The notes: generated by a model from the letters alone, not told the origin. A DNA stretch of 32,000 bases from Phycisphaera mikurensis NBRC 102666 (GCF_000284115.1 NC_017080.1:3420001-3452000), one strand, 5' to 3'. Shown: positions 3,775 to 20,146, counted from the stretch's first letter. Translations and numbers: made by a program.

Positions 3775-4130
3775 GTTCCTCTCGCTGGCCTCGGGCCGGT
3801 TGCTGACGCGGCCCCAGCGGGAGTCGCGTTCTTCCGGCGTGCTGCCGGGGCCGAGGGATTGGCCGTCCCGGCGGGCGTTGGCATTGGCGAAGGTCCCGAT
3901 CCAGCTCTGCGTGGTCCCGAACTGCTCCTTCATCACGCAGAGGAAGGGGTCGGGGATCTTGTCGACGACGCGGATCTCCTGCGGGAGCGAAGCGCCGGGC
4001 GCTTCGCCGCCCGGGGCTCGCCCCCCCCGGGAGCGTTGGCTCCCGTCCAGCCTCGCAGCCGCCGCCTCCAACGCCGCCACGGTCCCGGCGACATCGACCT
4101 CCAGGTTCACCGGTGCCGGTGGCAAGCGGC
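3775..4130 (-). pseudogene. orphan, diverged copy of the 3'-terminal ~115 codons of the 1800-aa ATPase gene (fragment or small paralogue)
   Basis: The minus-strand translation is RLPPAPVNLEVDVAGTVAALEAAAARLDGSQRSRGGRAPGGEAPGASLPQEIRVVDKIPDPFLCVMKEQFGTTQSWIGTFANANARRDGQ..RWGRV. It aligns with the end of the large protein: RLPPAPVNLEVDVAGIVAALEAAAAKLDGSQRSRGERATGDTHPQEIRVVNKIPDTFLYVMKEQFEIMQSWIEPFAQVNARQDGQ..RWGRV. The nucleotide match is very high for about 3990-4130 versus 6750-6890, apart from a 15-nt indel, and stops abruptly at 4130/6890. There is no ATG. An open frame 3685..4176 is possible from GTG 4174-4176; the native stop position is lost and the tail overlaps the 3' end of the ArsR-like gene. 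Confidence 0.7.
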
Positions 4131-4180
4131 GGATGCGCCCGAGCCTGCCGGAGTGGATCCACCTCGCGAGGTCCACGGTT

Positions 4181-5770: not shown

Positions 5771-5985
5771 CCGCAACACGGCCGCCGGGGCCCCGCCCCA
5801 AGATCTCGGGCCTTCCCCAGGATCCTCCGCCCTTGCACCGGAGCCCGCCTTGGCGTCGCGGCCGGGCCGTGGAGGAGCTCCGGCCCCTTCCCGCGAGACG
5901 AGGCCGCGGCTGGGGTCTAGTGTCGACGGGACGTCGCCGGAGGAGGCGGCGTCATCCTCGGGTCGAGAAACGAAGGAGTGGTGAA

Positions 5986-6528
5986 ATGCGGATCCCAACG
6001 ATGGGAGCGCTTGTGATTGGTGCCGCGGGCGCAAGCGGCGTCGCGGCTGCGCAGAGCGTGGAGGGGTCGATCGTGAGCGGCGGAACCACCGTCACCTCGG
6101 GCACGGCAACGCCGGGGCCGGGGGTGGAGTTCCGCGGCGAGGTCTTCCGCAACGAGATCTTCGGTGTCAACAGCGCCGACGCCTTCATCGACGTGGACGA
6201 CGACGGGCTGGGCGCGAGCTTCGGGATCGAGCGGACGGCCGGCTCCGCCGGGGTGTCGTCCGAAACGCCGGTGACGTTCACGCTCTCTGGCGCCGCGGTC
6301 GCGGGCATCGCCTCGGTGGACCTGCTCGACGAGAGCTTCGGCCAGGACCGGCCCGTCGAGAGCAGCTTCCGCGGCGGCACGCTGACGGTGACGCTGACCA
6401 ACGGCTTCTTCGTGGGCTCCTCCGACCCCAGCCGCGCGGCGGACTTCGGCTTCACGCCGATCCCCGAGCCCGCCGCGGCGGGGGTTCTCGCCCTCGGCAG
6501 CGCGGCTCTGCTCCGCCGGCGAGGCTGA
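5986..6528 (+). CDS. PEP-CTERM sorting-domain protein
   Basis: Track ORF 5833..6528, trimmed to ATG 5986 (MRIPTMGALVIGAAGASGVAAAQS signal), which is preceded by GAAGGAG at 5972-5978. The C-terminus, TPIPEPAAAGVLALGSAALLRRRG, has the PEP motif + TM helix + Arg cluster. Confidence 0.85.
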   Translation: MRIPTMGALVIGAAGASGVAAAQSVEGSIVSGGTTVTSGTATPGPGVEFRGEVFRNEIFGVNSADAFIDVDDDGLGASFGIERTAGSAGVSSETPVTFTLSGAAVAGIASVDLLDESFGQDRPVESSFRGGTLTVTLTNGFFVGSSDPSRAADFGFTPIPEPAAAGVLALGSAALLRRRG

Positions 6529-6546
6529 AACGCCTGTCACCAGGCC

Positions 6547-9500
6547 TCAGCTCCGGTCGCTGTTCTCGAGCTTGTCGATGACGCGGCCCCAGCGGTGGGT
6601 GAGCTTGTCGAGGGTCTGCTGCAGCTCGGTGAGCTGGCCGTCCTGGCGGGCGTTGACCTGGGCGAAGGGCTCGATCCAGCTCTGCATGATCTCGAATTGC
6701 TCCTTCATCACGTAGAGGAAGGTGTCGGGGATCTTGTTGACGACGCGGATCTCCTGCGGGTGCGTATCGCCGGTGGCTCGCTCCCCCCGGGAGCGTTGAC
6801 TCCCGTCCAGCTTCGCAGCCGCCGCCTCCAACGCCGCCACGATCCCGGCGACGTCGACCTCCAGGTTCACCGGCGCCGGTGGCAAGCGGCCGTCGCGGAC
6901 GGCCGAGGCGATCCCGCCGATCGCGGCGTTCACCTTCGAAAGCTCGGCGATGGCCGCGGCGGTCGCGTCGCCGGACGAAACGGCGGCGGCGACGGAGGCC
7001 GCGGAGCCACTGATCTTGCTCAGCTCGGCGATGGCGGCGGCGGTCGCGTCGCCGGACGAAACGGCGGCGGCGACGGAGGCCGCGGAGCCACTGATCTTGC
7101 TCAGCTCGGCGATGGCGGCGGCGGTCGCGTCGCCGCCGAGTGCTCTGACGCTGTTGTTCCGCACGAAGGCGGACTTGATCTCCACCCACCGCTCTTCCTG
7201 CTCGGGTGTGAGCCCGAAGACCAGCTCGCGGAACTTGAGCAGGTTGGCCTCGGCGCCGGTGGTGAGCGTCTGCGCATCCTGCTCGTAGGCGGAGACGATC
7301 AGCTCCCGCAGCTCCGCGTCGTTCATGACGGCGGAGACCTTCTCGGCGATGCGGTTCATGTTCCGGTAGCTGCCTTGCAGCAGGAACGGCGGCTCGGTGC
7401 GGTAGTCGTCGTCCTGACCGGCGGAGGCGATGTACGCGAGGTTGACCTTCAGGATCACATCGCGGACGCGGGCCAGCTTCCGCACGACCTCGACCATCTC
7501 CGCCAGCTCGTCGGGCGGGAAGCTCCCGTCGAACTCGACTCCGTCGGGCGAGGCGCCGCCGGCGAGGCGGATGACGCGGTGAACGTCGTCGCGGGTTGCC
7601 GTGGCCAGCGGGTTCAGCGCCGGGTTGCTGGTGAGCGCGTTCTCGAGGTAGCTCATCTCGAAGGCGTCGCCGTGCGCCCCGATGATGTCGCCGAGGTTGT
7701 ACGTGTCGGCCCGGTTGCTGAGCATGTCCGGGATGCGGAAGGCCTCGCCCGACTCCGTGTACGGGTTGCCGGCCATGACCACGGCGACCCGCCGGCCGCG
7801 GAAGTCGTAGGCCTTGGGCTTGCCGTGGCGGACGCCCTCGATCCGGCGCTGGGCGTCGCAGAGGCTGATGAACTTCTGCAGGAACGCGGGGTTCGTGTGC
7901 TGGATGTCGTCGACGTAGACCATCACGTTGTCGCCCATCTCAAAGCCGAGGTTCAGCTTCTGCAGCTCCTCCTTCGCCGCGGCGTTGGTGGCCTCGGCGG
8001 GGTCCAGCGAAGTGACGCCGTGCCCGAGCGCCGGGCCGTTGATCTTGAGGAACACCATGCCCAGCCGGGCGCACACGTATTCCATCAGCGTCGTCTTGCC
8101 GTAGCCGGGCGGCGAGATGAGCAGCAGCAGGCCCATGCGGTCGGTCCGGGTGTCGGCGCCGGCGGTGCCGATCTGCTTGGCGAGGTTGTCGCCGATCAGC
8201 GGCAGGAAGACCTCGTCGAGCAGCCGATTCCGGACGAAGCTGGTGAGCACCTTCGGCTTGAAGGTGTCGAGCCGCATCTGGTCGCGGGCTTCTTTAAGCA
8301 CCTCGTGCTTGGTGTCGCTGAACGCCTCGAACGCGGCGACGCCGGCGGTGGCGAAGCGCCGCATGCGCGGGACCCAGACCGGGTAATCGATCGTCAGCTC
8401 GCCGCCGCGGATGCGGGGGTGGTCGCCGACGAGGTTCTCCACGCTGCGCGTTGGCGAGGCGTCGAGGACGCGGAGGTTGTTCTCACCTCCGGCGAGGCGC
8501 AGCGCAACTTCCGGGTCACGATCCCAGGTGCGGGCGAGGCGGAAGCGCTCCACGGCATCCGGAGCCGCTTCGAGCGCGGCGGCGAGCGGCTCGCCCGCCG
8601 TCTCGCGCAGCGAGGCGGCGGACGCAACCGCCCCGCCGCTCGCCGCGAAGCGGACCTCGCCGCCGATCCCCGCGAGGCCGACCTCGGCGGCGAGCACGGC
8701 AACGGCCTCGTCGGCTTGCTCGGCCGTGAACCCCCCGACCTCCTCCGCGAATCCGCGGACCGTGGCCTCCAGCGCCGGGAAACCTCCACGGTCCGCGGCA
8801 TCCGCCTCTGCCTCTGTGCCTCCTCTGTGCCTCTGTGCCTCCGTGTCCTCTGCGTTCCGCGAAGCGGGTCCCGGAGACGCGGCCGCGGCGGCGTTGGCGA
8901 GGCGGAGGTGCCACAGCTTCCGCTCATCGTCGGTGGCGCCGGCCTCCCACCAAAGCTGCGCCAGCACCCGAGCGGGGGCGGAGAAGCGGAGCGTGCCCAG
9001 CGTGTCCCGCAGCTCGACCAGGGCCGACAGGATCTTCGCCGCGTCGGCGTCGTGGACGCCCTTCACGTAGCCCTCGGCGTAGCGCGGCGCCATGTACGCC
9101 TGCACCGCCTCGACGGAGGTGCCCGCGCCCGCTTCGAGCATGAGGTACGCGAGGTACTCCGCCCGGTACACGCTCGCGGACTCGCTGACCAGCGCCTGGT
9201 CCCACCGCGCAGACGCTCCACGCAGGCGGGGATCCGCAACCTCCTCGAAGAACTGCGTGCCGGTGACGTGCAGCACCGGCGTGTCGTCGCGGTGCACGAG
9301 CGTCAGGTCGATCGGCTGCGTGCTGATCGCGAAGGTGTGCCGGCCGAAGCGGATCGTGTCGCGGCCGCCGCCCTGCAGGTCGAGCCGATCCTTGAGCCGC
9401 CGGACGGCGTCCTCCTTCGCGGCCTTCAGCCCCGCGCGCAGGTCACCCTCGCGTACCCGGTCGTCCATCCCGCCCAGCTCGTCCGCGAGGTCGCGGAGCT

Positions 9501-11949
9501 TCTCGACCATCAGGTCGCCGGCGAAGTAGGCGTTGATCTCCTCGACCGCGTCCATCGACTCGACCCGCGAACGGACCGTCCCGAGGATCCGTTCCGCCGC
9601 CCGGGCGAGCGTGTCGGCCCGCTGGTTCTTCTGCTCGACGAGCGCGAGCCTTCGCTGCTCGAAGGCCGCGAGCACCTCCTCGCGCTTCTCGATGAGCACC
9701 CCGACGAAGTCGTCGAAGCCGCCGAAGCTCGCTTCGAGTTCCTCGACCTGGACCATCAGCTTCGCGAGCGAGGCGTCGGCCTTCTCGGGCGTGTCGGCCA
9801 GCTCCAGCGCGTTGGTGATGCTCTGCTCCAGCAGCTTCAGCCGGGAGGCGAACTCGGCGGCGCCTTCCTGTTGGCCCAGCTCCTGCCGCCGGGCCCGCAG
9901 CCGGGAGCGGGTGGCGTTCAACCGGGAGAAGACCTCGGAGATCGCCTCGACCACCGCGGTCCGCTGCGTCGCGTCGTCGATGTCGAGGTTGTTGACGACG
10001 TCGATCAGCAGCTCCAGCTCGCCGGCTGCCTCGGCGACTTCGTCGCCGAGGGCTTCGGCCTCGGCCGCGGTGGCGAGGGCACCGACGGCTTCGTCCTGCG
10101 CCCGGACCCGATCGCGGTACGGGTCCAGCGCGTCGTCGCGGAGCAGGAACGAGAGCGTCTTCTGCGAGACGGCCTCGGTCTGATCGACGACCTCGGCCTC
10201 CATCGCCTCGACCTCGCCCGGGTCGACATGCCGCAGCTCGCGGAGGCCGATGACCTCGCCGCGGACCGCCCGCAGCGCCGCGAGCGTCTCGACGTACCCG
10301 CCGACCTCGTCGGGGTTCGCCACGCGGGCCGAGGCGATCGCGGCGTCGACCTCCGACCGCACCTCCGCGACGGCCCGGGCCGTCTCGCGTCGCTGCCGGG
10401 TCAGCTTCTCGTACTCCCCCACCGCCGCGGCCGCCGCGTCGCGGATGCCCGCCAGCGGCTCGGCCACCCGCGCGGCGGCATCTTCTCCTAGCCAGAAGTA
10501 GGTGTCCAGCAGGTCACCGGCCTGCTTGACGAGGTCGGCGTACAGCGATTGGTAGAGGTCCTCCCGCGTCGCGAGCCCGAGCACCTGCCGGGCCTCGGCC
10601 ATGGCCCGGACCACGTCGCGGTTGCCGATCCGCTTGAGCGGGTTGTCGTCCCCCCCGCCGGCCACCGCGGGCGCGACGTGGTCGGGCCCCACGAACGGAG
10701 TCGTCCAGTTCTGCACCGCGTGGTGCTTCTGCGGCTCGGCGCCCTCCGGAGACTTGAACAGCAGCAGCCGCCCGTCGTCGCGGAAGGCGTAGCCGTTGCA
10801 CACGATCGGCGCGGCGACTTGGCGGGCGATCAGGTTGTACGCGAACAGCACGTAGACGCCCCGCTCCCGCTGGTAGAAGACGTAGAGGAAGTCCTCTCCA
10901 TTCGGAGACACGACCCTGCGGTCGAAGGTGAGCCCGCCCGGGGCCGCCACCAGGTCCGCCACCGCCGCGAACACCTGCTTCTCGCCGGTGGCGAGGTACA
11001 CGCCGTCGGCGGTCATCACGCCCTGGTCCTCGGGCAGCAGCACCGCGGCAGTGCCCAGGCCGTCGGCCCGGACCGCGGTGCCGAGCTTCGTGTTGAAGAC
11101 GAAGTGCCGCCACGCCTTCTCGCGGTACGGGCGGATGCGCAGCAGGACCAGCGGGCCCTCGACCACGTACAGCACGTCGGCGTCGTCGAGGCCCTGGTCC
11201 GGCTCGTCCACCGGCTCGGCCAGGATGCCCTCGCCCGTCTCGGTGTTGTTCTCGACCTTGATGGTCAGGTCGCCCCCGGTGGTCTCGACGAAGACCAGGT
11301 CCTCGATCGAGTAGTGCGGGAACCGCCCGCCGGTCTGCATGTCGCGGGTCACGCGTTTCCACGCGAAGTCGTGCTGGGGCGGGTAGGTGACCTCGTGGTC
11401 GGATCGATTGCCGAGGTAGGCCAGACCTTCTCCTTCTTGTCCTGACTCGCCGGGGGCGAATGCCCACTTGAACGCCTTGAAGTCGTCGACGGTCCGGCCG
11501 GTCCGGAACTTCATGTAGACGTGGGGCCCGCGGCGGAAGAACTTGGTGAAGCGTGCGTCCTTGTAGAAGCGCATCAGGTCGGTGAAGTCCTTCCTGAAGC
11601 TCTCGTTCTCCAGCAGCCCGAGGCCGTCGTCGTGGAAGACCGCTTCGTCGTCCTGCCGGTAGCAGGCGAAGACGTCGCCGAGGTCGACGGTGCTCTTGAG
11701 GCCGAAGTGCACGTTGAAGCCCATCAGCACGCGGTCGCCGACGGCCACGATGTCCCGCGGCACGCAGGCGTGCGCCGTGGTCACCCGCGAGGTGCCGGCC
11801 AGCGCGAGCTCGACGCTGCCGAACGCCTCCTTCCGCTTCGCGTTGAGCGCCTCGAGCCGCTCCCGCAGCTCTCTCGCCTGCGCATCGAGCCGCCCGCGGA
11901 GCACGTCGTAGGAAGACCGGTCGAGCTGTTCGGGTGGGGCGTCAGGCAT
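6547..11949 (-). CDS. giant (1800 aa) AAA+ ATPase: DUF3686-like beta-rich N-domain, long helical region, MoxR/midasin-like ATPase core, repeat-containing C-terminus
   Basis: Uninterrupted 1800-codon ORF starting at ATG 11947-11949. The N-terminal ~440 aa are beta-rich (FVETTGGDLTIKVENNTETGEGI, YVFYQRERGVYVLFAYNL); from memory I recognise this as the DUF3686-type domain that accompanies AAA modules. About 550 aa of A/E/R-rich helix follow. Walker A is ISPPGYGKTT (Lys codon 8095-8097, aa 1285). Walker B is VYVDD (7906-7920). VMAGNPYTESGEAFRIPDMLSNRAD resembles the MoxR/dynein-clade sensor region. There is no TM segment. Confidence 0.85.
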   Translation of the reverse strand: MPDAPPEQLDRSSYDVLRGRLDAQARELRERLEALNAKRKEAFGSVELALAGTSRVTTAHACVPRDIVAVGDRVLMGFNVHFGLKSTVDLGDVFACYRQDDEAVFHDDGLGLLENESFRKDFTDLMRFYKDARFTKFFRRGPHVYMKFRTGRTVDDFKAFKWAFAPGESGQEGEGLAYLGNRSDHEVTYPPQHDFAWKRVTRDMQTGGRFPHYSIEDLVFVETTGGDLTIKVENNTETGEGILAEPVDEPDQGLDDADVLYVVEGPLVLLRIRPYREKAWRHFVFNTKLGTAVRADGLGTAAVLLPEDQGVMTADGVYLATGEKQVFAAVADLVAAPGGLTFDRRVVSPNGEDFLYVFYQRERGVYVLFAYNLIARQVAAPIVCNGYAFRDDGRLLLFKSPEGAEPQKHHAVQNWTTPFVGPDHVAPAVAGGGDDNPLKRIGNRDVVRAMAEARQVLGLATREDLYQSLYADLVKQAGDLLDTYFWLGEDAAARVAEPLAGIRDAAAAAVGEYEKLTRQRRETARAVAEVRSEVDAAIASARVANPDEVGGYVETLAALRAVRGEVIGLRELRHVDPGEVEAMEAEVVDQTEAVSQKTLSFLLRDDALDPYRDRVRAQDEAVGALATAAEAEALGDEVAEAAGELELLIDVVNNLDIDDATQRTAVVEAISEVFSRLNATRSRLRARRQELGQQEGAAEFASRLKLLEQSITNALELADTPEKADASLAKLMVQVEELEASFGGFDDFVGVLIEKREEVLAAFEQRRLALVEQKNQRADTLARAAERILGTVRSRVESMDAVEEINAYFAGDLMVEKLRDLADELGGMDDRVREGDLRAGLKAAKEDAVRRLKDRLDLQGGGRDTIRFGRHTFAISTQPIDLTLVHRDDTPVLHVTGTQFFEEVADPRLRGASARWDQALVSESASVYRAEYLAYLMLEAGAGTSVEAVQAYMAPRYAEGYVKGVHDADAAKILSALVELRDTLGTLRFSAPARVLAQLWWEAGATDDERKLWHLRLANAAAAASPGPASRNAEDTEAQRHRGGTEAEADAADRGGFPALEATVRGFAEEVGGFTAEQADEAVAVLAAEVGLAGIGGEVRFAASGGAVASAASLRETAGEPLAAALEAAPDAVERFRLARTWDRDPEVALRLAGGENNLRVLDASPTRSVENLVGDHPRIRGGELTIDYPVWVPRMRRFATAGVAAFEAFSDTKHEVLKEARDQMRLDTFKPKVLTSFVRNRLLDEVFLPLIGDNLAKQIGTAGADTRTDRMGLLLLISPPGYGKTTLMEYVCARLGMVFLKINGPALGHGVTSLDPAEATNAAAKEELQKLNLGFEMGDNVMVYVDDIQHTNPAFLQKFISLCDAQRRIEGVRHGKPKAYDFRGRRVAVVMAGNPYTESGEAFRIPDMLSNRADTYNLGDIIGAHGDAFEMSYLENALTSNPALNPLATATRDDVHRVIRLAGGASPDGVEFDGSFPPDELAEMVEVVRKLARVRDVILKVNLAYIASAGQDDDYRTEPPFLLQGSYRNMNRIAEKVSAVMNDAELRELIVSAYEQDAQTLTTGAEANLLKFRELVFGLTPEQEERWVEIKSAFVRNNSVRALGGDATAAAIAELSKISGSAASVAAAVSSGDATAAAIAELSKISGSAASVAAAVSSGDATAAAIAELSKVNAAIGGIASAVRDGRLPPAPVNLEVDVAGIVAALEAAAAKLDGSQRSRGERATGDTHPQEIRVVNKIPDTFLYVMKEQFEIMQSWIEPFAQVNARQDGQLTELQQTLDKLTHRWGRVIDKLENSDRS
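6940..7135. repeat. 81-bp tandem repeat, about 2.4 copies, in frame inside the ATPase gene
   Basis: Copies start at 6940, 7021 and 7102. Copies 1 and 2 differ at only 2 of 81 nt. They encode GDATAAAIAELSKISGSAASVAAAVSS twice, then GDATAAAIAELSKV (aa ~1606-1670). Confidence 0.95.
8801..8868. repeat. solo arm of the CTCTGTG-rich inverted-repeat element, embedded in frame in the ATPase CDS
   Basis: tccgcctctgcctctgtgcctcctctgtgcctctgtgcctccgtgtcctctgcgttccgcgaagcggg shares the core cctctgtgcctctgtgc, then tccgtgt and gcgaagcg, with the arm at 12450-12509 in the same orientation. On the coding strand it reads ...SRNAEDTEAQRHRGGTEAEADAADRGG... (aa ~1028-1050). Confidence 0.75.
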
Positions 11950-12000
11950 CAGCGGTGTCGCTCGTGGTTCGGATGCTGCGGGGCGGGAGGTGTACGAGCG

Positions 12001-12058
12001 GCGCTTCGCTTGATCACAGAGAGCACAGAGGCACAGAGGCCACAGAGAGGCACAGAGG
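12001..12058. repeat. left inverted-repeat arm of the GxxExxY cassette
   Basis: gcgcttcgcttgatcacagagagcacagaggcacagaggccacagagaggcacagagg, complementary to 12450-12509. Confidence 0.85.
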
Positions 12059-12065
12059 TTGGGGC

Positions 12066-12443
12066 TCAGGCTTGGTCGGCGATCACGCGGCGGCTGTGGT
12101 CTCGGATGTTGTCGCCGTGGAAATTGATCAGGAGGCCCAGTGGCAACTGCATTGCGCGGAGATAAGTGATGACCTGGTCGCGATGAGCATCGTGGAGTCG
12201 CTCTACAGCCTTCAACTCGATCACGAGCTCGCCCTCGACAAGGAGATCCACCTTTCCTTCGCCAACCACCACGTCCTTGTAAACCAGCCGGACCGAAACC
12301 TGCCGCTCGAAGGAGATGCCACGCGAACCCAACTCGACAGCCAGCGCATTCTCGTAGGTCTGCTCCCTGAATCCCGCACCCAGTGCCGAATGCACCTCCA
12401 TGGCGGCACCCAACACCCGCCCGGTCAGTTCGCTGTCGCTCAT
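12066..12443 (-). CDS. GxxExxY family protein (PD-(D/E)XK nuclease-like fold)
   Basis: Track ORF 12066..12518, trimmed to ATG 12441-12443 (MSDSELTGRVLGAAMEVH), which is preceded by GGAGGAAGAAG; 125 aa. It contains GFREQTY (the GxxExxY motif) and VDLLVEGELVIELK (D..E.K). The extra N-terminal codons in the track (TESTEAQRPQRE) are just the translated repeat arm. Confidence 0.85.
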   Translation of the reverse strand: MSDSELTGRVLGAAMEVHSALGAGFREQTYENALAVELGSRGISFERQVSVRLVYKDVVVGEGKVDLLVEGELVIELKAVERLHDAHRDQVITYLRAMQLPLGLLINFHGDNIRDHSRRVIADQA

Positions 12444-12449
12444 CTTCTT

Positions 12450-12509
12450 CCTCCGTGCCTCTCTCTGTGGCCTCTGTGCCTCTGTGCTCTCCGTGTTCAA
12501 GCGAAGCGC
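12450..12509. repeat. right inverted-repeat arm of the GxxExxY cassette (contains the cassette gene SD)
   Basis: cctccgtgcctctctctgtggcctctgtgcctctgtgctctccgtgttcaagcgaagcgc. The cctcc at 12450-12454 is the complement of the GGAGG Shine-Dalgarno of the GxxExxY gene. Confidence 0.85.
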
Positions 12510-12534
12510 TGCCCGCACGCAGCTGACTCCCGAA

Positions 12535-14532
12535 TCACCCCCCGATCTCGCTGAGGCGTTTGTCGCTCGCGCCCGTGGCTTTGGCGAGGCCGAGCAGGCC
12601 TTTCAGCTCGCCGAGCAGGCCCTCGTCGTCGGAAGAGGCCATGGCTTTGCCGAGCAGCGCGGCGATGGTGAGGTTCTTCACGTCCTCCGAGGACACGCCG
12701 GTCTGCTGGACGAGCTCCTTGAGCCGGCCGCCGAACTCGCCGTTGGACAAAGCTCCCCCCGGGCCGTCGCCGGAGAGCTGAGACGCGATGCGCTCGACGT
12801 GCTTGGAGTTGTCGACGAAGCGGTCGACCTGCTTGCCGCGGGTGATCGCGTTGATGAGGTTGTCGAAGAAGACGCCGTCGCCGCCGACGATGTCGATGTT
12901 CGCGGACTTGAGCGCCTCGGCCAGCACCCTCGCCTGCTCGGCGGCGATGTCCTTCTGGATGCCAATCTCGGCGAGCTCGACCTGGAGCCTCCGCTCCAGC
13001 TCCAGCTTGAACTCCTCGTGCTCCTTGCCCACGCCGTCGAGCTTCCGCATCGCCTCGGCCTTGGCCGCGACGGCCTCGGCCTCGGCGTTGCCCTTGGCCC
13101 GCATCACCTGCGCCTCGGCGGCGCCGTACTTGTCGAGCGCCCCGGCCTGGGCGTCCATCACCTCGGCTTCGGCCAGGCCCGCGGCGGCCTTCTCGGCCTG
13201 CAGCGCCTCGGCCATCTTCATCTTGCCCAGCGCCTCCTGCTCGGCCGCCTCGCGGTGGGCGCCCGCCTCGATGAGGATTTCCTCGGCCTGGAACTTCGCG
13301 GCCAGCTGCCCGGCCTCGGCCTTCTGCACTTCCTGCACCTTGGCCTCCTCCGCCTTGGCCTGGGCCGCGGTGACGCTGACGGTCTTCGCCCGCTCGGCGG
13401 CGGCGACCTCTTCGGTGTCCTTGATCTTCTCCTGCTCCTCGACGACCGCCCGCTCGACGACGACCCGCTCGCGGATGACGTCCTGGATCTGGCGGCGCTG
13501 CTCCTCGAGCGCCTTCTCCTTCTCGATCTCCGCCAGCTCCACCACGCGCTCGCGCTCGGTCGCTTCGAGCCCCTTCTCCCGCAGCACGCGCTCGCTCTCG
13601 ACGGCGTCGGTCTTCTCCTTGGCCTTGGCCGCGACCAGGATCTGGCGGAGCTTGTTCTGCTCGGCGATGCCCAGCTCCTCCTCGGTGCTGATGCGGGCCC
13701 GCTCGCTCTTGAAGCGTTCCTCCTCCTCGACCTTCTGGGCCTCGGCCTGCTCACGGGCCTTGACGCTGGCGATCTCGCGGGCCTGGCGGTCTTCCGCCTC
13801 CTCCTGCTGACGCTCGAGCTCGAGGATCGCCTCGCGGGCCTCGACGTCCTGCTTCTTGATCGTCTTCTCCTTCTCGCGGGCGATGCTGTTGGACAGCACC
13901 GCCTCTCTCGCGGTCAGGTCGGTGATCTTCTTGATCCCCTCGGCGTCGAGGATGTTGCTGGGATCGAGCTGCTTGAGGTCGGTCTGCTCGAGGTAGTCGA
14001 TCGCCGCGTCGTCGAGCACGTAGCCGTTCAGGTCCGTGCCGATGTGGGCGAGGATCTCGTTCTTGAACTTCTCCCGCTCGGTGTAGAGCTCGGTGAAGTC
14101 GAAGCTCTTGCCGACGGTCTTGAGCGCCTCGGAGAACTTGGCGTCGAAGAGGTCCACCAGCGCCTGGATGTCGCTGGCCCGGCGGCAGCCGATGCTCTGG
14201 GCGACCTGCAGCACGTCGGCGCTGGCGTTGTTCACGCGGACGAAGAAGGCGACCTTGATGTCGGCCCGGACGTTGTCCTTGCAGTTGAGCCCCTCGGAGC
14301 CGTGGCGGTAGATCTCGATCCGCTTCACCGAGATGTCCATGAACTCGGCGCGGTGCATGATCGGGATCACCGGGATCCCCGAGAAGGTGACCTTCGTGGG
14401 ACCCACGCCGGTCCGCACCAGCGCGGTGCCCTGCTCGACCTTCACGAAGAACTTCGCGAGCATCGTGAGGAAGCCCACGGCGATGACCAGGAGCCCGACG
14501 ACGACGACGGCGATGACGATGGCGGTTTGCAT
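12535..14532 (-). CDS. flotillin / SPFH (band 7) family protein, YqiK-like
   Basis: 665-aa ORF starting at ATG 14530-14532. It has an N-terminal membrane anchor (MQTAIVIAVVVVGLLVIAVGFLTMLA), an SPFH core (VKVEQGTALVRTGVG...VSVKRIEI...DNVRADIKVAFFVRV) and a ~300-aa E/A/K/R-rich coiled coil. The flotillin-type C-terminus is IDIVGGDGVFFDNLINAITRG. Confidence 0.92.
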   Translation of the reverse strand: MQTAIVIAVVVVGLLVIAVGFLTMLAKFFVKVEQGTALVRTGVGPTKVTFSGIPVIPIMHRAEFMDISVKRIEIYRHGSEGLNCKDNVRADIKVAFFVRVNNASADVLQVAQSIGCRRASDIQALVDLFDAKFSEALKTVGKSFDFTELYTEREKFKNEILAHIGTDLNGYVLDDAAIDYLEQTDLKQLDPSNILDAEGIKKITDLTAREAVLSNSIAREKEKTIKKQDVEAREAILELERQQEEAEDRQAREIASVKAREQAEAQKVEEEERFKSERARISTEEELGIAEQNKLRQILVAAKAKEKTDAVESERVLREKGLEATERERVVELAEIEKEKALEEQRRQIQDVIRERVVVERAVVEEQEKIKDTEEVAAAERAKTVSVTAAQAKAEEAKVQEVQKAEAGQLAAKFQAEEILIEAGAHREAAEQEALGKMKMAEALQAEKAAAGLAEAEVMDAQAGALDKYGAAEAQVMRAKGNAEAEAVAAKAEAMRKLDGVGKEHEEFKLELERRLQVELAEIGIQKDIAAEQARVLAEALKSANIDIVGGDGVFFDNLINAITRGKQVDRFVDNSKHVERIASQLSGDGPGGALSNGEFGGRLKELVQQTGVSSEDVKNLTIAALLGKAMASSDDEGLLGELKGLLGLAKATGASDKRLSEIGG

Positions 14533-14582
14533 GGGGTTTCTCGGCCTTGGGTGGTCAGGGGGTCAGGAAGCAGGGAGCAGAG

Positions 14583-14716
14583 CCGCAGAGGACGCAGATG
14601 GCCGCAGAGGGAAGAGGGGAAGGATCGAGTTGGACTGGAGCAGCAGCTGAAGGGACGGAGCTGGGGGTTGTGCGGGAGCCTGGTCTCGGCTTTGCGTTCC
14701 TCTGCGTCCTCTGCGG
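14583..14716. repeat. ORF-less hairpin element related to the cassette arms (CTCTGCG variant)
   Basis: ccgcagaggacgcaga at 14583-14598 is the perfect reverse complement of tctgcgtcctctgcgg at 14701-14716. The loop is 102 nt, and more gcagagg/cctctgc units flank both arms. It lies in the 211-bp gap between the NfeD-like and flotillin genes. Confidence 0.75.
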
Positions 14717-14743
14717 GTTGACTCGGATCGACTCACCACGACC

Positions 14744-15463
14744 TCAGAACGCGGCGACGTAGTAGACGCGGGACTCGTCGTCCTCCGCGACCAGGACGGC
14801 TTCGTCGCCCTTGTTCAGGACGACGCTCTCGTCGCGGGTGCGGGCGTGGAGCTTGAGGGGGGCGCCGGCGGTGGCGACCTCGACCTGGCCGCCGCGGGTG
14901 TCGACGGTCAGCGAGGAGACGGTGCAGCGGCGGCCGAGCAGCTTCAGGTTGCTTTCGGCCTCGCTGTCGGCCTCCATCGTCTTGACCATTCTTGCGATCG
15001 GCATCGTCACGAGCTTCATGACGATCAGCGAGACGAGCAGCACGGGGACGAAGAAGAGCAGCTGGAAGAGCAGGCCCCAGCCGCCGAAGACCGGGTACGC
15101 GAGCACGCCGATGGCCCAGAGCGACAGCAGCAGCACCGACCACAGGACCAGGATCGGCACGCGGCCGACGTTGAGGAACTCCAGCGTGTCGCCGACGAAG
15201 CCGTGGGCGCCGACGTCGCCGTCCACGTCGGCGTCGCCGGCGTCGAAGTCCAGGTCCAGCGAGTCGATGCCGACGGCACCGAGGATCACCACGAGCCAGT
15301 AGAGGCCCGTGACGCACAGCAGCACGCTCAGCACCAGGTTGACCGGGCTCGCGACGCAGGCGTTGAAGAAGTCGATCACCAAGTCCGCCCTTCGCCACGC
15401 GGTCGCTCCCGGGTTGCGGCCGCGTGGGGAGGCTCGGAAACTCCCCCGGGGGGAGACTCGCAT
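14744..15463 (-). CDS. NfeD/YqiJ-like inner-membrane protein (DUF1449-type, C-terminal OB-like domain)
   Basis: This is the C-terminal part of track ORF 14744..16162. The first ATG in the plausible region is 15461-15463; an alternative GTG at 15377-15379 (VIDFFNACV...) may be the true start. It has an acidic loop (DSLDLDFDAGDADVDGD), three or four TM helices and a C-terminal beta segment, LLGRRCTVSSLTVDTRGGQVEVATAGAPLKLHARTRDESVVLNKGDEAVLV. This is the layout of YqiJ-type NfeD partners of flotillins. Confidence 0.75.
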   Translation of the reverse strand: MRVSPRGSFRASPRGRNPGATAWRRADLVIDFFNACVASPVNLVLSVLLCVTGLYWLVVILGAVGIDSLDLDFDAGDADVDGDVGAHGFVGDTLEFLNVGRVPILVLWSVLLLSLWAIGVLAYPVFGGWGLLFQLLFFVPVLLVSLIVMKLVTMPIARMVKTMEADSEAESNLKLLGRRCTVSSLTVDTRGGQVEVATAGAPLKLHARTRDESVVLNKGDEAVLVAEDDESRVYYVAAF

Positions 15464-15528
15464 TCTAAAGGTTTCCGCGGACCGTGGAGGTTCCCGCCGC
15501 CTGTGCGTCGCGGTCCGCGGGTGCGGCG

Positions 15529-17655
15529 TCAGCGGGTCCAGGCGCGGCCCGCCAGCGCTTCGAGCACGAGCAGAGCGAGCACGACCCAGAGCAGACCGGC
15601 GGCGAGGGAGGCCCGCGCCGGGTCGCCGGCGAAGGCGGCGGCGGGGTCGTCGGCGGGGAGGAACGCGACGGGCCCGAGGCCGGCGTACGCGGCGGCGACG
15701 CGGGAGGCCGCCTGGCCGGTGGTGTCGGCCGGGGCGGGCGAGACCACGGTTCCGCCGGAGAGGCCGGCACGGCCGCCCGTCGCGTCGCCCGCGGCGGCGA
15801 CGGCCGGCTCCGCCTCGGCGCGGGCGGCGACGGCGGCGAGCAGGCCGTCGCGCAGCAGCGCGGGGAAGAGCGGCTTGGCCGGCAGGTTCGTCCAGGCGGG
15901 ATCGAGGGCGGTGGCGAGGTAGACGACGCGGCCGGCGGCCTCGGCGGAGCGGGCGGAGGCGGTGAGCGGCACGCCCGCGGCGGAGCGGATCCAGACGTCG
16001 GCCGGATCGACGCCGGCCGGCGCCGCGAGCCGATCGATGCGGAGCGGGCGGAGAAGCGCCTCCCACTGGCCGGCGAGCAGCGCGAGCGTCGCGGGAGCGG
16101 GCCGGGAGGCGTCGGCGCGGATGGGCCCCTCGGCGCCCTCCGCCGCGGGGGACGGCCGCCACGGGAGGCCCAGCGCCTCGAACAGCGCGCCCAGGCCGGC
16201 TCCGGGCTCGTCTTCGGGTGCCGCGGCGGAGGGCGTGACCCAGGCGGCACCGCCGGCGGCGACGAACGCGGCGACGGACGCGCGGCCCGCCGGGCCCAGC
16301 GCGGCGGGGTCGAGCGTGACGACGGCGTCGAGCGTGTCGTCGCCGCCTCCGGGCGGGACCAGCGCCACCGGCGAGCCGAGCGGGCGGACCGCAAAGCCGG
16401 TGCCCTCCCCCAGCGCCGCGGCGGCGAAGTCGGAGGGCGCGAGGCCGCCGTCGGCCGATTCCCCGCCGAGCAAGCCCACGCGCACGGCCTCCACCAGCTC
16501 CACGCGGGCGAGGCCGGCGTCGTCGGCGGCGACGGCGTCGCCGGCGGGCGGATCCAGCGTGGCGAGCAGCAAACGGCGGCCGGGCGCGAGCGGCTCGGGC
16601 GCCTCCAGCGGGACGCGCACGACCGCCTCGGCGACGCCGGCGTCGAGGGTGACCTCGCGGCGGCCGGTTGCGAGCGCCGGCCGCTCCGCGAGCGCCGCGA
16701 GCGGGGTGAAGCCGGCGGCGGCCGCGGGTTCGACCAGCTTGACGACGACGGAGGCGTCGGCCGCCGCGCCGGCGGCGCCCGCGGCTTCGCCCGCCCGGCG
16801 GACCCGCACGAGGGCCTCGAGCCGGCCCGCCGAGCGGGACGCGGCGGCGTCACCCGCCGCGACCACCGCCCGCGTCGGGCGGACGCCGCCGAGGGCGAGG
16901 TTCGGCACGCCGGCCGCCGGCCGCGACAGCCAGACCCGCGGACCCACGCCGTTTCCGCCCTCCGGGGCCCACGGTCCGCGGCCGGCCACGCCCTCCTCGG
17001 GGAAGTGGGGGGAGAGCACGACCACCGCGGCCTCGCGGCCGGCGGCGGCGTCGGCACGGGCCGCCTCGGCGACGCGCGGGAGCACAGCCTCCCGGGCTGG
17101 CGCGGCGTCGGTCACGCCAAGGCCGGCGACCCGCTGGCGGGCGGCCGCGGGGGCAAGCGACGGCGGATCGCCGGCGTCCCCGCCGCCGGCGAGCGGCCAG
17201 ATCCGCACGCGGTCCGCGGGGTCGAGCGAAGCGAGCACGGCGTCGGCTTCACGCAGGGAGCGGGCGAGGAAGGCGTCTTCCTCGCCCGGCAGCCGTGCAC
17301 CCGACGCGATCCCGTTGTCGATCACGAGGTCCACCGACCGCCCCGCGGCCCCGGCGACCCCCAGCGCCGAGGCGAGCCGCCCGCTCACCAGCGGCCCCGC
17401 CAGCGCGAGCCCGAGCAGCACGAGCAGCAGGCAGCGGCAGCCCAGCAGCAGCCACCGCTCGAAGCGGAGCCGGCGACGCTGCTTCTGGATGGCCTCCCGC
17501 AGGAAGCGCATCGCCGCCCACGGGCGCTGCTTGCGGCGTCGCCGCGAGAGCAGGTGCAGCGTGACCGGCACCGCCACCGCCGCGACGCCCGCCACCGCGA
17601 GCGCCGGCGCGACCAGCGAGGCGGCGGCCTGGGCGAGAACGAACGGAGCCTGCAT
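15529..17655 (-). CDS. BatA-like N-terminal double-transmembrane domain protein (708 aa) with a degenerate vWA-like region
   Basis: The N-terminus, LVAPALAVAGVAAVAVPVTLHLLSRRRRKQRPWAAMRFL...WLLLGCRCLLLVLLGLALAGP, matches the aerotolerance-regulator BatA N-terminal pattern. It is followed by VDLVIDNGIAS (a weak MIDAS-like position). It lies 36 bp downstream of the DUF58 gene. Confidence 0.75.
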   Translation of the reverse strand: MQAPFVLAQAAASLVAPALAVAGVAAVAVPVTLHLLSRRRRKQRPWAAMRFLREAIQKQRRRLRFERWLLLGCRCLLLVLLGLALAGPLVSGRLASALGVAGAAGRSVDLVIDNGIASGARLPGEEDAFLARSLREADAVLASLDPADRVRIWPLAGGGDAGDPPSLAPAAARQRVAGLGVTDAAPAREAVLPRVAEAARADAAAGREAAVVVLSPHFPEEGVAGRGPWAPEGGNGVGPRVWLSRPAAGVPNLALGGVRPTRAVVAAGDAAASRSAGRLEALVRVRRAGEAAGAAGAAADASVVVKLVEPAAAAGFTPLAALAERPALATGRREVTLDAGVAEAVVRVPLEAPEPLAPGRRLLLATLDPPAGDAVAADDAGLARVELVEAVRVGLLGGESADGGLAPSDFAAAALGEGTGFAVRPLGSPVALVPPGGGDDTLDAVVTLDPAALGPAGRASVAAFVAAGGAAWVTPSAAAPEDEPGAGLGALFEALGLPWRPSPAAEGAEGPIRADASRPAPATLALLAGQWEALLRPLRIDRLAAPAGVDPADVWIRSAAGVPLTASARSAEAAGRVVYLATALDPAWTNLPAKPLFPALLRDGLLAAVAARAEAEPAVAAAGDATGGRAGLSGGTVVSPAPADTTGQAASRVAAAYAGLGPVAFLPADDPAAAFAGDPARASLAAGLLWVVLALLVLEALAGRAWTR

Positions 17656-17661
17656 CGGCGG

Positions 17662-17667
17662 ACGCTA
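17662..17667 (-). promoter_or_regulatory. -10-like hexamer TAGCGT, 6 nt upstream of the ATG of the BatA-like gene (leaderless-type arrangement)
   Basis: The mRNA-sense sequence is TCCCGTAGCGTCCGCCGATG (17672..17653). There is no Shine-Dalgarno. Confidence 0.35.
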
Positions 17668-17691
17668 CGGGAGCGGACGGACGCCCGCGGG

Positions 17692-18705
17692 TCAGGCCCG
17701 CATCGCGGAGGAGCGCTGGGCGAGGGCGGCGGCGAGCTGCGCGCCCGGCGGCTCGTCGGTGCGCATCAGGCGGTGGTCGTAGCCGAAGCGGGTGCAGGCG
17801 GCGCCGACGGCGGCGAGGTGCTCCCCAACGGCGGCGCGGTAGGCCTTCCGCAGCGACCTGGGGTCGGCACCGACGCGGCCGCCGCCCTCGAGGCCGACGA
17901 ACTCGGCTGGCTCGTCGCCGCCGGGCCCGCTGCCCAGGTCCAGCTCCACCGGATCGAGCACCTGCAGCACGAGCGTGTCGTGGTTCGCTCCGCCGTGCCG
18001 CAGCCGGCCCAACGCCGACTCCAGCGCCGCGACCGGGTCGAGGAGGTCGGCGAGGATCACGACGAGCCCGCGCCGGCCGCCGCCGCCGCCCAAGCCGCCG
18101 GCGATGCGGCCGGCGGCGGCGAGGAGGCCCGCGCCCCGGTCGTCTTCCTCGGCGGCCTCCCCGCCGGACGCCTCGGCCTCGGCCACGCCCGCCGCGTCGA
18201 GCGCGGCGGTGACTTCCTCGGCGTGGCCCGACGCGTTGCTCGGCGGCAGGCCGCCGCTCACGCCCGCGTCGAACAGCACGAGCCCGACGCGGTCGCGCTG
18301 GCGGGTGCCCAGGTGCGCGAGCGTGCCGGCGAGCACGGCGGCGTGGTCGAACTTGCTCCAGGCGTCCGGCCGCGTCCGGCCGCCGGGCCGGACCGCACCG
18401 CCGGCGCCACCCGCGAAGCGCATCGACGCGGACCGGTCGACGGCGAGGGTCAGCTCCAGCTGGCTCTCCCGCTCGAACTGCCGCAGGTGGGCCTTGTCGG
18501 TGCGGGCGAGCACCTTCCAATCGAGGTGCCGCAGGTCGTCGCCGGCGACATAGGGCCGGTGCTGCGCGAACTCGGTGGAGACGCCGGAGAGCGGCGTGCG
18601 GTGCCCGCCGGAGAGCAAGCCCTCAACGACGAGGCGGCTGCGTAGCTCGACCCCCTCGACGGCGCGGAGCGTCTCGGGATCGGGATGGAGGCTTCTCTCC
18701 GGCAC
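17692..18705 (-). CDS. DUF58 domain protein (vWA-like partner of MoxR ATPases)
   Basis: 337-aa ORF starting at GTG 18703-18705. GGHRTPLSGVSTEFAQHRPYVAGDDLRHLDWKVLARTDKAHLRQFERE...LAVDRSASM is the canonical DUF58 signature. Confidence 0.85.
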   Translation of the reverse strand: MPERSLHPDPETLRAVEGVELRSRLVVEGLLSGGHRTPLSGVSTEFAQHRPYVAGDDLRHLDWKVLARTDKAHLRQFERESQLELTLAVDRSASMRFAGGAGGAVRPGGRTRPDAWSKFDHAAVLAGTLAHLGTRQRDRVGLVLFDAGVSGGLPPSNASGHAEEVTAALDAAGVAEAEASGGEAAEEDDRGAGLLAAAGRIAGGLGGGGGRRGLVVILADLLDPVAALESALGRLRHGGANHDTLVLQVLDPVELDLGSGPGGDEPAEFVGLEGGGRVGADPRSLRKAYRAAVGEHLAAVGAACTRFGYDHRLMRTDEPPGAQLAAALAQRSSAMRA

Positions 18706-18711
18706 GCGCGG

Positions 18712-18717
18712 AGGCTA
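18712..18717 (-). promoter_or_regulatory. -10-like hexamer TAGCCT, 6 nt upstream of the GTG of the DUF58 gene; its TA is the IS630 target duplication
   Basis: The mRNA-sense sequence is TAGCCTCCGCGCGTG. The IS end abuts the TA at 18716-18717. Confidence 0.35.
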
Positions 18718-18725
18718 GTGCCGCG

Positions 18726-19439
18726 TCACGCCGCGATCCGCGGGTAGAGGCTCAGCAGCTTGATCCGGGCGTCATCGGCGGTGAACTGCCAGTGCACGCC
18801 TCGCTGGCTCTGGTTGCGAGCGGCCGCCCAGGCTCGGGCCTCGCGATCGATCTCCTGGATGGTGTCGATCCGTCGGCCGAGGCATTGCCTTGAGAGCACA
18901 CTCAGTTCGCACTCGGCGATGTTCAGCCACGAACCGTGGGCCGGCGTGTGCACCAGCTCGATCCGCTCAGCGATCCGCCGCGCCTCTGCTGCCTCGAATG
19001 CTTCGTACAACGACGCGATCCTGTGGGTGTTCAGGTTGTCGCACACCAGGCGGATCCGCGTCGCTGACTCGTAACGCGGGGCGTCCACCAACGCCTGGAT
19101 CTGGTGGGCCCAGTCCGCCGCGGTGCGTCGCCGACTGGTCCGAACGTCCCGCCACCCAGCCAACGGCTCGGTGAACATCCACAGGTTGCAGGTGCCGTGC
19201 CGCACGTACTCGTGGTCCTCGATCCGACGGCCGGTGGAGTCGGTGAAGCGGCGGCGGGTCTCGCCGATGAGCTGCTTGGGCTGCTCGTCCATGCACACCA
19301 CCGGCAACGCCGGGTCGTAGGCGAGCGCGTACAGGCACAGCACCGCCTCCATGGCCGCGACGAAGGCCGCGGACTGCTCCGGCGGGATGCACCACATCTT
19401 CTTCCTCCACGGCTTCAGGCCGTTTTTTGAAGAGCGCAC
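18726..19439 (-). CDS. IS630-family transposase, DDE catalytic part (orfB, probably expressed by -1 frameshift fusion)
   Basis: NGLKPWRKKMWCIPPE is the typical IS630 junction motif. Acidic triad candidates are VVCMDEQP, LVCDNLNTH and WLNIAECE. There is no convincing independent start; the track start is a GTG inside the overlap. Confidence 0.85.
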   Translation of the reverse strand: MRSSKNGLKPWRKKMWCIPPEQSAAFVAAMEAVLCLYALAYDPALPVVCMDEQPKQLIGETRRRFTDSTGRRIEDHEYVRHGTCNLWMFTEPLAGWRDVRTSRRRTAADWAHQIQALVDAPRYESATRIRLVCDNLNTHRIASLYEAFEAAEARRIAERIELVHTPAHGSWLNIAECELSVLSRQCLGRRIDTIQEIDREARAWAAARNQSQRGVHWQFTADDARIKLLSLYPRIAA

Positions 19440-19879
19440 CGCACCGCTTCGCGGCTGATCGAGTCCACCACCTTCAGCTCCACCAGCCGGCCGGCCAGGA
19501 GGCGGAGGCTCCAGCGATCATGGCCCTCGGGCGGGTCCGAGCAGGCGATCGTCACCAGCTGAGCTTCGCCTACGCCGTCGAGCTTGCGTTGCATCGCGCG
19601 GTCTTGAGGCTTGCGTTCGAGCAACGAGAGCGGACCGTCCTCGACAGCCTTCTTCCGCCAGCCCTCCACAGTGCGGACACCCGCGTCGAAAGCCTCGGCA
19701 ATCTGCTCGTCGGTCCAGGCCGGGGCGCCGGGCGATTCGTCGCACTTGAGCAGGGCTTGCGCCCGCTGGATCTTCCAGCCGGCGACGCGGCCGCTGCGGA
19801 CCAGCGTGGTCAGCTGCTCCCGCTCGTCGTCGGTGAGGTGGACGTGGTAGAGCTTTCGATTCTTGAGCTTCGTGGCCAT
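19415..19879 (-). CDS. IS630-family transposase, N-terminal HTH part (orfA)
   Basis: Track ORF 19415..19897, trimmed to ATG 19877-19879 (MATKLKNRKLYHV), which is preceded by GGAGGCCAAGG. It has helix-turn-helix-like segments (DEREQLTTLVRSG, DEQIAEAFDAGVRTVEGWRKK). Confidence 0.85.
   Translation of the reverse strand: MATKLKNRKLYHVHLTDDEREQLTTLVRSGRVAGWKIQRAQALLKCDESPGAPAWTDEQIAEAFDAGVRTVEGWRKKAVEDGPLSLLERKPQDRAMQRKLDGVGEAQLVTIACSDPPEGHDRWSLRLLAGRLVELKVVDSISREAVRCALQKTA
19422..19428 (-). promoter_or_regulatory. A6C slippery motif, putative programmed -1 ribosomal frameshift site of the IS630 transposase
   Basis: The minus strand reads CTT CAA AAA ACG GCC TGA in the orfA frame and TCA AAA AAC GGC CTG in the orfB frame. 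A -1 slip on the A run gives ...CALQK-NGLKPWRKKMWCIPP. Confidence 0.6.
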
Positions 19880-20146
19880 CCTTGGCCTCCTTTGCATTCG
19901 GTGGTGAACCCGTGCACGGTGACGCTACACGCCTCACCCGCAGATCGGCGGCAGCCGCGGCACTAGAGCATCCAAGCGGCGTCAAGCTGCCGCTCGGCTG
20001 GGAGCAGACCCCGCCGCCCGCGGCCCGCGAGCCGGGCGATCGTGCGGCGACGCGGCCGCGGGCCGCGGGCTGCGGGCCGCCACCGTGCGGAATCCAGGCG
20101 GGCGTAACGCCATGAACCGATGCGACGCTCGATCCCTCCGCCTGGA

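Follow-up and report, generated by a model that had tools for sequence, protein, structure and literature searches.

The closest described system to the locus analysed here is an operon published by Ravi et al. 2024 (mSystems, PMC11237479), which associates CesT/Tir-PspA with three proteins, namely a YqiJ/YuaF protein with three transmembrane (TM) segments, a TM-band7-coiled coil-flotillin protein and a beta-propeller-coiled coil-AAA+ protein, and which exists also in an "abbreviated" form without PspA. These authors read the operon as a matter of PspA-linked membrane dynamics, suggest that the abbreviated operons rely on a PspA whose gene lies elsewhere, and draw a Vps4-type analogy for the PspA-AAA+ associations; statistics, an assignment to an AAA+ clade and experiments on the operon are not given there. 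Our analysis concerns a stretch of 32,000 nucleotides of Phycisphaera mikurensis NBRC 102666 (GCF_000284115.1, NC_017080.1:3420001-3452000), called the window in what follows, with a G+C content of about 72%, in which three genes encode successively a NfeD-like membrane protein, a flotillin and a very large ATPase—the triad. Compared by layout with the published operon, e.g. that of Dokdonia donghaensis (ANH61663.1), the triad displays the same three architectures in the same order. Among its relatives, the loci of Bacteroidota reproduce the full layout, including the divergent helix-turn-helix (HTH) regulator, CesT_Tir and PspA, and those of Flavobacteriaceae correspond to the Dokdonia row. 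The window, on the other hand, lacks CesT/Tir and PspA, and has elements inserted in its two gaps as well as within the ATPase gene. The Phycisphaera triad is a short-form member of this published neighbourhood type.

An earlier note, made from the sequence of the window, had stated that no characterised system with such a triad was known. This holds for experiments, but the gene neighbourhood itself was already published. Besides, a 2026 survey of the SPFH proteins of Pseudomonas names no such ATPase partner. What is added here is the statistics of the linkage read both ways, a tentative placement of the ATPase near the MoxR type, the description of an invariant Walker B motif with DD, the conservation of the flotillin coiled coil, and an insertion hot spot. 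We propose, as a reading that we give roughly even chances, that the triad would be a conserved module for the maintenance of the inner membrane and the response to envelope stress, in which the ATPase would dock on the flotillin/NfeD scaffold and remodel it.

The linkage of the three genes carries most of the argument. The ATPase belongs to a large family: more than 2156 homologues were found, and clustering at 50% identity leaves 885 matching representative clusters (E up to 1e-3). A scan of GTDB with an ATPase alignment, one genome per species, yielded at least 570 relatives, of which the best 80 loci were analysed; they come from Planctomycetota, Verrucomicrobiota, Kiritimatiellota, Bacteroidota, Desulfobacterota, Clostridia and Omnitrophota, and the counts of upstream genes were limited to the 61 loci having at least 3.5 kb of upstream DNA. 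A flotillin gene lies directly upstream of the ATPase gene, on the same strand, in 58 of these 61 loci, and the NfeD-like gene is present as well, upstream of flotillin, in 55. SPFH matches number 64 in the 330 kb immediately upstream of the ATPase genes, versus none in the 849 kb of the other flank. When the open reading frames (ORFs) of all 80 loci were clustered, exactly three widely conserved families came out—ATPase, flotillin and NfeD-like—and no further gene is conserved across the 80 loci. The two upstream genes are mostly tightly spaced in the related loci (-4 to +50 bp between NfeD-like and flotillin, with a gap above 300 bp in 1/57), and in about half of them flotillin and ATPase are separated by -11 to ~100 bp.

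The linkage is just as strict in the other direction. On metagenome contigs searched with flotillin as the seed, the ATPase was found downstream in 61/63 loci and the NfeD-like gene upstream in 67/68. The earlier note had left room for an adjacency that would be incidental in this genome; the counts obtained both ways indicate that it is not. This near-obligate linkage in both directions allows us to state with high confidence that, at the level of the module, the triad is a functional unit. A mutual dependence of about 95% each way, in at least seven phyla, means that the ATPase is likely integral to how this flotillin works, and not an accessory.

Table 1. Location in the window of the triad, of the regions of the ATPase and of the inserted elements.
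Feature	Position	Strand	Basis
NfeD-like gene (YqiJ/YuaF-type short NfeD-like membrane protein)	14744-15463	minus	
Cargo-less inverted repeat (CGCAGAGGACGCAGAGG ... CCTCTGCGTCCTCTGCGG type; CGCAGAGG-type motifs) between the NfeD-like and flotillin genes	~14583-14716	none	
Flotillin gene, YqiK-type, 665 aa	12535-14532	minus	
Inserted cassette: GxxExxY/PD-(D/E)XK gene with 58-nt inverted repeats on both sides	11992-12518 (527 bp)	minus	
GxxExxY/PD-(D/E)XK gene, 125 aa, between the flotillin and ATPase genes	12066-12443	minus	
ATPase gene, 1800 aa, soluble, DUF3686 family, annotated "DNA repair ATPase"	6547-11949	minus	
ATPase: beta-propeller (residues 49-416, DUF3686 core)	10702-11805	minus	AlphaFold pLDDT ~85-95 and Foldseek
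ATPase: alpha-helical, coiled-coil-like bundle (residues 437-858, includes DUF7902)	9376-10641	minus	model
ATPase: single AAA+ module (residues ~1230-1600)	7150-8262	minus	motifs, Pfam, model core pLDDT 85-98
ATPase: C-terminal extension, low-complexity helical linker and conserved terminal helical hairpin (residues ~1735-1800)	6550-7149	minus	

All three ORFs were confirmed as co-directional genes of the minus strand (Table 1), as had been noted beforehand, and the domains attributed to them—YqiJ/NfeD-like, flotillin and soluble AAA+—proved right, given the matches to the YqiJ profile, Band_7, YqiK, DUF3686 and AAA_5. In the ATPase, which is 100% identical to a public partial "DNA repair ATPase" of Phycisphaera mikurensis, Pfam recognizes DUF3686 at residues 27-485 (E 7e-179), DUF7902 at residues 606-690 (E 7e-27) and AAA_5 (25.4 bits for a cut-off of 22); Pfam AAA also matches. 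No TM segment appears, the maximum Kyte-Doolittle score of a 19-mer being 1.46. The protein was modelled with AlphaFold in two parts from 64-sequence alignments, residues 1-1010 with a mean pLDDT of 82 and residues 1190-1800 with a mean of 78. In the first model a long helix (residues 6-43) precedes the beta-propeller, for which Foldseek finds CyRPA, WD40 domains, the clathrin terminal domain and prolyl oligopeptidase; then come the helical bundle, with helices of 40-58 residues (pLDDT ~80-90), and a small beta domain at residues 882-903, followed by helices. The second model consists of one AAA+ module, then helices.

The AAA+ motifs of the window ATPase are Walker A GYGKTT, Walker B YVDDIQH, sensor 1 AGNP, an arginine in NRAD and sensor 2 GSYR; all five, with Walker B taken as DDIQH, are invariant in 74 ATPase sequences from seven phyla, where the majority-residue conservation of the AAA+ core reaches 85%. 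The Walker B of the family (residues 1341-1349, window 7903-7929) is of the form hhhhDD (YxDDIQH), and not the usual DE. As to the clade, Foldseek places the module among pre-sensor-1 hairpin proteins: MCM, NorQ/CbbQ (MoxR), RuvB, ClpX and Lon, the best target-normalised superpositions being those of NorQ and CbbQ (TM 0.55-0.58). Profile searches of the sequences of the PDB gave nothing beyond matches at the level of Walker A (p97, RuvB), and a search of NCBIfam had no informative match. The assignment to a "MoxR/dynein class", made in the earlier note, therefore stands only in part: the AAA_5 match, just above its cut-off, and the TM of NorQ/CbbQ speak for it, but MCM and RuvB match at a similar E, and we only tentatively locate the AAA+ module near the MoxR-type ATPases.

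Other parts of the ATPase vary more. The linker at residues ~1011-1210 and the C-terminal 170 residues are specific to lineages: the matches of Planctomycetota and Desulfobacterota reach the C-terminal extension, which bears the conserved motif VVNKIPxTFLxVxKEQF, and most of those from Bacteroidota, Verrucomicrobiota and Clostridia stop near residue 1630 (gap frequency 0.54).

The same two regions of the gene carry repeats in the window. At 8748-8857, inside the coding sequence and in frame, a repeat element occupies the variable linker (residues ~1031-1067); it is made up of a hairpin CCGCGGACCGTGG...CCACGGTCCGCGG with CACAGAGG-type repeats after it, and takes the place of a stretch that more distant homologues keep conserved. 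The same CCGCGGACCGTGG...CCACGGTCCGCGG hairpin is found at 15470-15525, just upstream of the NfeD-like gene, and at 16936-16981, inside a gene for a BatA-N protein. Toward the 3' end, at 6941-7135, a near-perfect tandem repeat of 81 bp, with two full copies and a partial one identical at 97-99%, encodes repeats of 27 amino acids (GDATAAAIAELSKISGSAASVAAAVSS) in the C-terminal linker. The public partial protein ends just before this tandem repeat, which may reflect a break in the assembly. Further, the last ~110 codons of the ATPase gene (6570-6897) have a degenerate second copy at ~3790-4140, 2.76 kb downstream, with 85-92% of nucleotide identity and with mutations at residues conserved in the family. 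Such an arrangement is reminiscent of the trace of an element that would have entered the gene at its 3' end and brought a substitute for that end; the 2.4 kb separating the two copies revealed no integrase.

The flotillin of the triad starts with a TM anchor at about residues 4-27, the single hydrophobic segment within residues 1-33. The SPFH/Band_7 domain (about residues 31-200) is followed by a helical region rich in Glu, Ala and Lys (about 200-520)—called a coiled coil from its composition and from its alignment with the coiled coil of Escherichia coli YqiK—and by a conserved C-terminal part. When residues 1-224 are scanned alone, Band_7 is detected at 31-172 (E 6e-11, 43 bits for a cut-off of 23.6). 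The scan of the full-length protein against Pfam is empty even at E 10, most likely through the HMMER filters, which would discard the compositionally biased coiled coil, and a sequence and profile search of PDB chains found nothing either. The relationship to YqiK is clear (29% identity over 516 aa, E 1e-37), and the relatives of the protein are named "flotillin family protein" or "YqiK" at NCBI and JGI. The alignment with YqiK stops at residue 501, and the C-terminal 235 aa have no Pfam match (Flot PF15975 included), while being conserved among orthologues.

Within the triad the flotillins are remarkably constrained: among those linked to the ATPase the pairwise identity is 50-79% in the related loci, the SPFH domain keeps 60-70% identity with orthologues of other phyla, and even in the coiled coil the frequency of the majority residue is about 0.65-0.72 across phyla. 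As the coiled coil is conserved across phyla, whereas the ATPase-less YqiK of E. coli is only 29% identical, such a constraint would be the mark of pressure exerted by a fixed partner that binds the flotillin. Lysines placed after the TM segment suggest in addition, by the positive-inside rule, that the bulk of the flotillin is cytoplasmic and so within reach of the soluble ATPase.

The third member is a small membrane protein with three hydrophobic segments on its hydropathy profile, which we read as three TM segments; its layout is completed by an acidic DxDxD loop and by a C-terminal domain that is probably beta-rich. Alone it scores 22.0 bits against YqiJ_N, a borderline value for a cut-off of 23. 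The family is better recognized from its orthologues: YqiJ_N matches 19 of 57 (best E 4e-8), and the profile of the 57 aligns with E. coli YqiJ over 184 columns (hhalign probability 96.6%, E 6e-10). The match of this profile to the OB domain of Bacillus subtilis YuaF (2k14) is weak (E 0.033), and Pfam NfeD matches only 2/57. The start of the gene is more likely the GTG at 15382, which fits the alignment of the orthologues better than the ATG at 15463. Between TM1 and TM2, the loop (residues ~36-58, window 15200-15260) is made of alternating aspartates, DxDxDxDxD, that are kept in orthologues; this pattern suggests the binding of cations.

How the three proteins might work together can be sketched from the solved structures of SPFH and SPFH-NfeD cages. 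The E. coli pair YbbK (QmcA)-YbbJ, as summarised in PMC13086221, assembles as 26 heterodimers into a cage that projects into the cytoplasm. By analogy, the TM-anchored flotillin, with its bulk in the cytoplasm, and its three-TM NfeD-like partner would assemble into an oligomeric scaffold or cage of SPFH type on the cytoplasmic face of the membrane. The ATPase would assemble into a ring by means of its one AAA+ module, of MoxR-like type, and would dock on the scaffold by its beta-propeller and its helical bundle of ~400 residues; ATP hydrolysis might then open, disassemble or recycle the scaffold and thereby control its contents. The cargo could be polymers of PspA where PspA is co-encoded, or unfolded membrane-protein clients. 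A more precise version, which we find possible though on balance doubtful, makes the ATPase a dedicated and non-proteolytic remodeller of flotillin cages, docking on the dome formed by the coiled coils and opening or dismantling the cage. If it were true, the conserved coiled coil of the flotillin would be the interface, and the flotillin microdomains of bacteria would have an ATP-controlled cycle of assembly, with a role of the ATPase on an SPFH scaffold that is Vps4/ESCRT-III-like.

Several observations weigh against the triad as an ATP-driven scaffold module. Three of the 61 ATPase loci have neither flotillin nor NfeD-like gene within 7-10 kb upstream (L028, L038 and L040; possibly by break-up of the operon or by loss), and the gap between flotillin and ATPase exceeds 300 bp in 28/69 loci, about 40%. 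In the window itself both gaps, of 211 and 585 bp, contain inserted elements, so that co-transcription is not assured. Structurally the AAA+ module has weak matches (E ~1e-3), with MCM and RuvB at a similar level, and its clade is not settled. MoxR-type ATPases usually have a VWA partner; no gene for a VWA-domain partner is conserved across the 80 loci. The two aspartates of Walker B might entail, judging from the motif, a hydrolysis that is slow, regulated or switch-like. By homology search PspA is absent from the 32-kb window, and a CesT homologue likewise, so that the window represents only the abbreviated form. Finally, our search of the literature on DUF3686, on YqiK and YqiJ with an ATPase, and on "DNA repair ATPase" with flotillin found no experimental study of the triad.

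The occurrence of PspA near some triads leads to another reading, in which the substrate of the ATPase would be PspA—an ESCRT-III homologue—acted upon in a Vps4-like manner, with flotillin and NfeD-like protein only as a platform, and with a PspA encoded elsewhere in the genome if not adjacent. The analogy and the recourse to a distant PspA were both put forward by Ravi et al. (PMC11237479). PspA_IM30 indeed adjoins the triad in three lineages and in two gene orders: it precedes the unit in 17 loci of Bacteroidota, 15 of which also have CesT_Tir_1 and a divergent HTH regulator, and in one locus of Kiritimatiellota (L006), and it lies directly downstream of the ATPase gene in two metagenome-assembled genomes of Phycisphaerae (L017 and L058). 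Altogether this makes PspA an optional neighbour, in 20/80 of the genome loci, and upstream in 35/80 of the metagenome loci. The ATPase is linked to flotillin in ~95% of the loci and to PspA in only ~25-45%, which favours flotillin as the obligate partner. Moreover the AAA+ module is unlike those of the classical-clade Vps4/p97 beyond the Walker A region, and no MIT-like domain was seen in the ATPase. We consider a PspA-directed ATPase as fairly unlikely.

The module might also be devoted to the quality control of membrane proteins, the flotillin/NfeD assembly acting as an ATP-independent holdase from which the ATPase extracts, unfolds or releases clients, in the way of a protease-free analogue of HflK/C-FtsH. 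MoxR-type ATPases are generally regarded as chaperone-like, and this type provides the best structural match of the AAA+ module. In Staphylococcus aureus, FloA-NfeD stabilises unfolded proteins without ATP (PMC11222466), and HflK/C makes complexes with the AAA+ protease FtsH (PMC13220708). On the other hand, no protease, chaperone or client gene is conserved near the 80 loci, and pore loops threading a substrate have no direct evidence. So strongly conserved a coiled coil in the flotillin, besides, suggests a fixed partner rather than varied clients. This function of the triad seems to us unlikely.

A membrane-located anti-phage or abortive-infection system is very improbable. The combination of a large ATPase with membrane proteins is common in defence systems, and toxin-antitoxin and Abi genes do occur inside the locus in two cases (L043 and L054); yet these genes share their insertion hot spot with transposases and look like passengers. 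PADLOC matches none of the three proteins. Furthermore, the conservation across phyla (60-70% in SPFH, 85% in the AAA+ core) is unlike that of defence genes, which evolve fast and are patchily distributed, and the neighbourhood is otherwise variable and, in the window, made of housekeeping genes. As for a DNA repair ATPase with incidental membrane neighbours, its sole arguments are the Pfam description of DUF3686, the product names of NCBI and weak matches to RuvB at the level of Walker A, against which stand the absence of any DNA-binding, nuclease or helicase domain in the ATPase (Pfam, NCBIfam, Foldseek), of any repair gene conserved near the 80 loci and of any paper found mentioning DUF3686, together with the near-obligate flotillin/NfeD linkage, so that we hardly give it credit and regard the name "DNA repair ATPase" as very probably a misnomer, propagated to thousands of genomes.

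The junction between flotillin and ATPase genes deserves a separate description, as it behaves across phyla as an insertion hot spot. In the window it is occupied by a cassette whose gene is clearly of the PDDEXK_3 family (E 3e-39) and whose inverted repeats are 91% complementary. This cassette had been taken for a repeat element of 509 bp leaving a gap of about 76 bp after its removal: the inverted repeats are present, but they enclose a gene, and the gap comes to 58 bp by our measure, close to the first estimate. Homologues of the cassette gene, 32-36% identical over most of their length, lie in the same gap and on the same strand in seven loci of Verrucomicrobiota; in one of the seven, L077, it is a short fragment, 59% identical. 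We examined this GxxExxY gene as a possible fourth conserved member, and rejected it: it is limited to the window and to the seven Verrucomicrobiota loci, and unrelated selfish genes take this gap in other loci. These are IS200-like Y1 transposases, a DUF559 endonuclease, ParE with its antitoxin, and AbiEii; the loci concerned by inserts in the gap are L014, L016, L019, L034, L044, L061, L077, L020, L036, L024, L054 and L043. In the version with a dedicated remodeller of flotillin cages, the frequent uncoupling of the two genes, or insertion between them, might correspond to a need to produce the scaffold in much larger amounts than the motor. Between the NfeD-like and flotillin genes of the window, the cargo-less inverted repeat, whose RNA folds with -52 kcal/mol (z = -3.6 vs shuffles), resembles an empty version of the ends of the cassette.

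Upstream of the triad and on the same strand (15529-19897), the window encodes a BatA-N membrane protein of 708 aa, whose gene reaches 82% G+C, then a DUF58 protein, and also a transposase of IS630 type (HTH_32 and DDE_3); the genes downstream of the ATPase encode two secreted proteins, their family unknown, as well as a zinc alcohol dehydrogenase. None of these flanking genes recurs beside the triad elsewhere. Genes for DUF58 and BatA-type proteins are usual companions of MoxR ATPases, and we considered the two genes of the window as MoxR-type partners; they were rejected, not being kept beside the triad in the other genomes of the 80 loci, and no MoxR gene was found here. ORF 5917-6540, directly downstream of the ATPase gene, is Arg-rich, has no family match and failed the GC3 coding filter: it is probably no gene. 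A scan of the intergenic gaps for promoters and terminators gave no sigma-70-like promoter and no convincing terminator on the minus strand, such a scan being uninformative for a high-GC planctomycete.

Returning to the scaffold module, its interest lies first in the access that it offers. A group of flotillins with an ATPase of their own, whose catalytic motifs are invariant, provides an experimental handle: motor-dead mutants, trapping mutants and defined binding partners. The optional linkage to PspA, on its side, ties the module to membrane repair.

Placed among other known systems, the triad resembles the pairs yqiJ-yqiK of E. coli and yuaF-floT of B. subtilis, which associate a homologous membrane protein with a flotillin in the same order. 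It departs from them by its third gene, since yqiK of E. coli is followed by sibD/ibsD with no ATPase downstream, and by the flotillins themselves: those linked to the ATPase form a group of much tighter conservation. With HflK/C-FtsH, and also with prohibitin/m-AAA and erlin/p97, the triad shares the association at the membrane of a scaffold of the SPFH family with an AAA+ ATPase, which is hexameric in those systems. FtsH, however, is anchored in the membrane, belongs to the classical AAA clade and possesses a protease domain, whereas the ATPase of the triad is soluble, protease-free and MoxR-like, with a beta-propeller and a long helical bundle.

The comparison with ESCRT-III/Vps4 and PspA is of another kind: in a part of the family a membrane-remodelling polymer, PspA, is encoded beside the AAA+ protein, but it is optional, and the AAA+ module is not Vps4-like, having in common with the p97 type only the Walker A region. 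Lastly, the MoxR ATPases of the NorQ-NorD, CbbQ-CbbO and RavA-ViaA systems resemble the ATPase of the triad by the AAA_5 match, by the superposition with NorQ/CbbQ and, as read by eye, by the layout of the sequence from Walker B to sensor 1, which is close to that of AAA_5 proteins. The ATPase of the triad is nevertheless six to seven times larger than these, has a Walker B in DD, and is accompanied by no conserved VWA partner.

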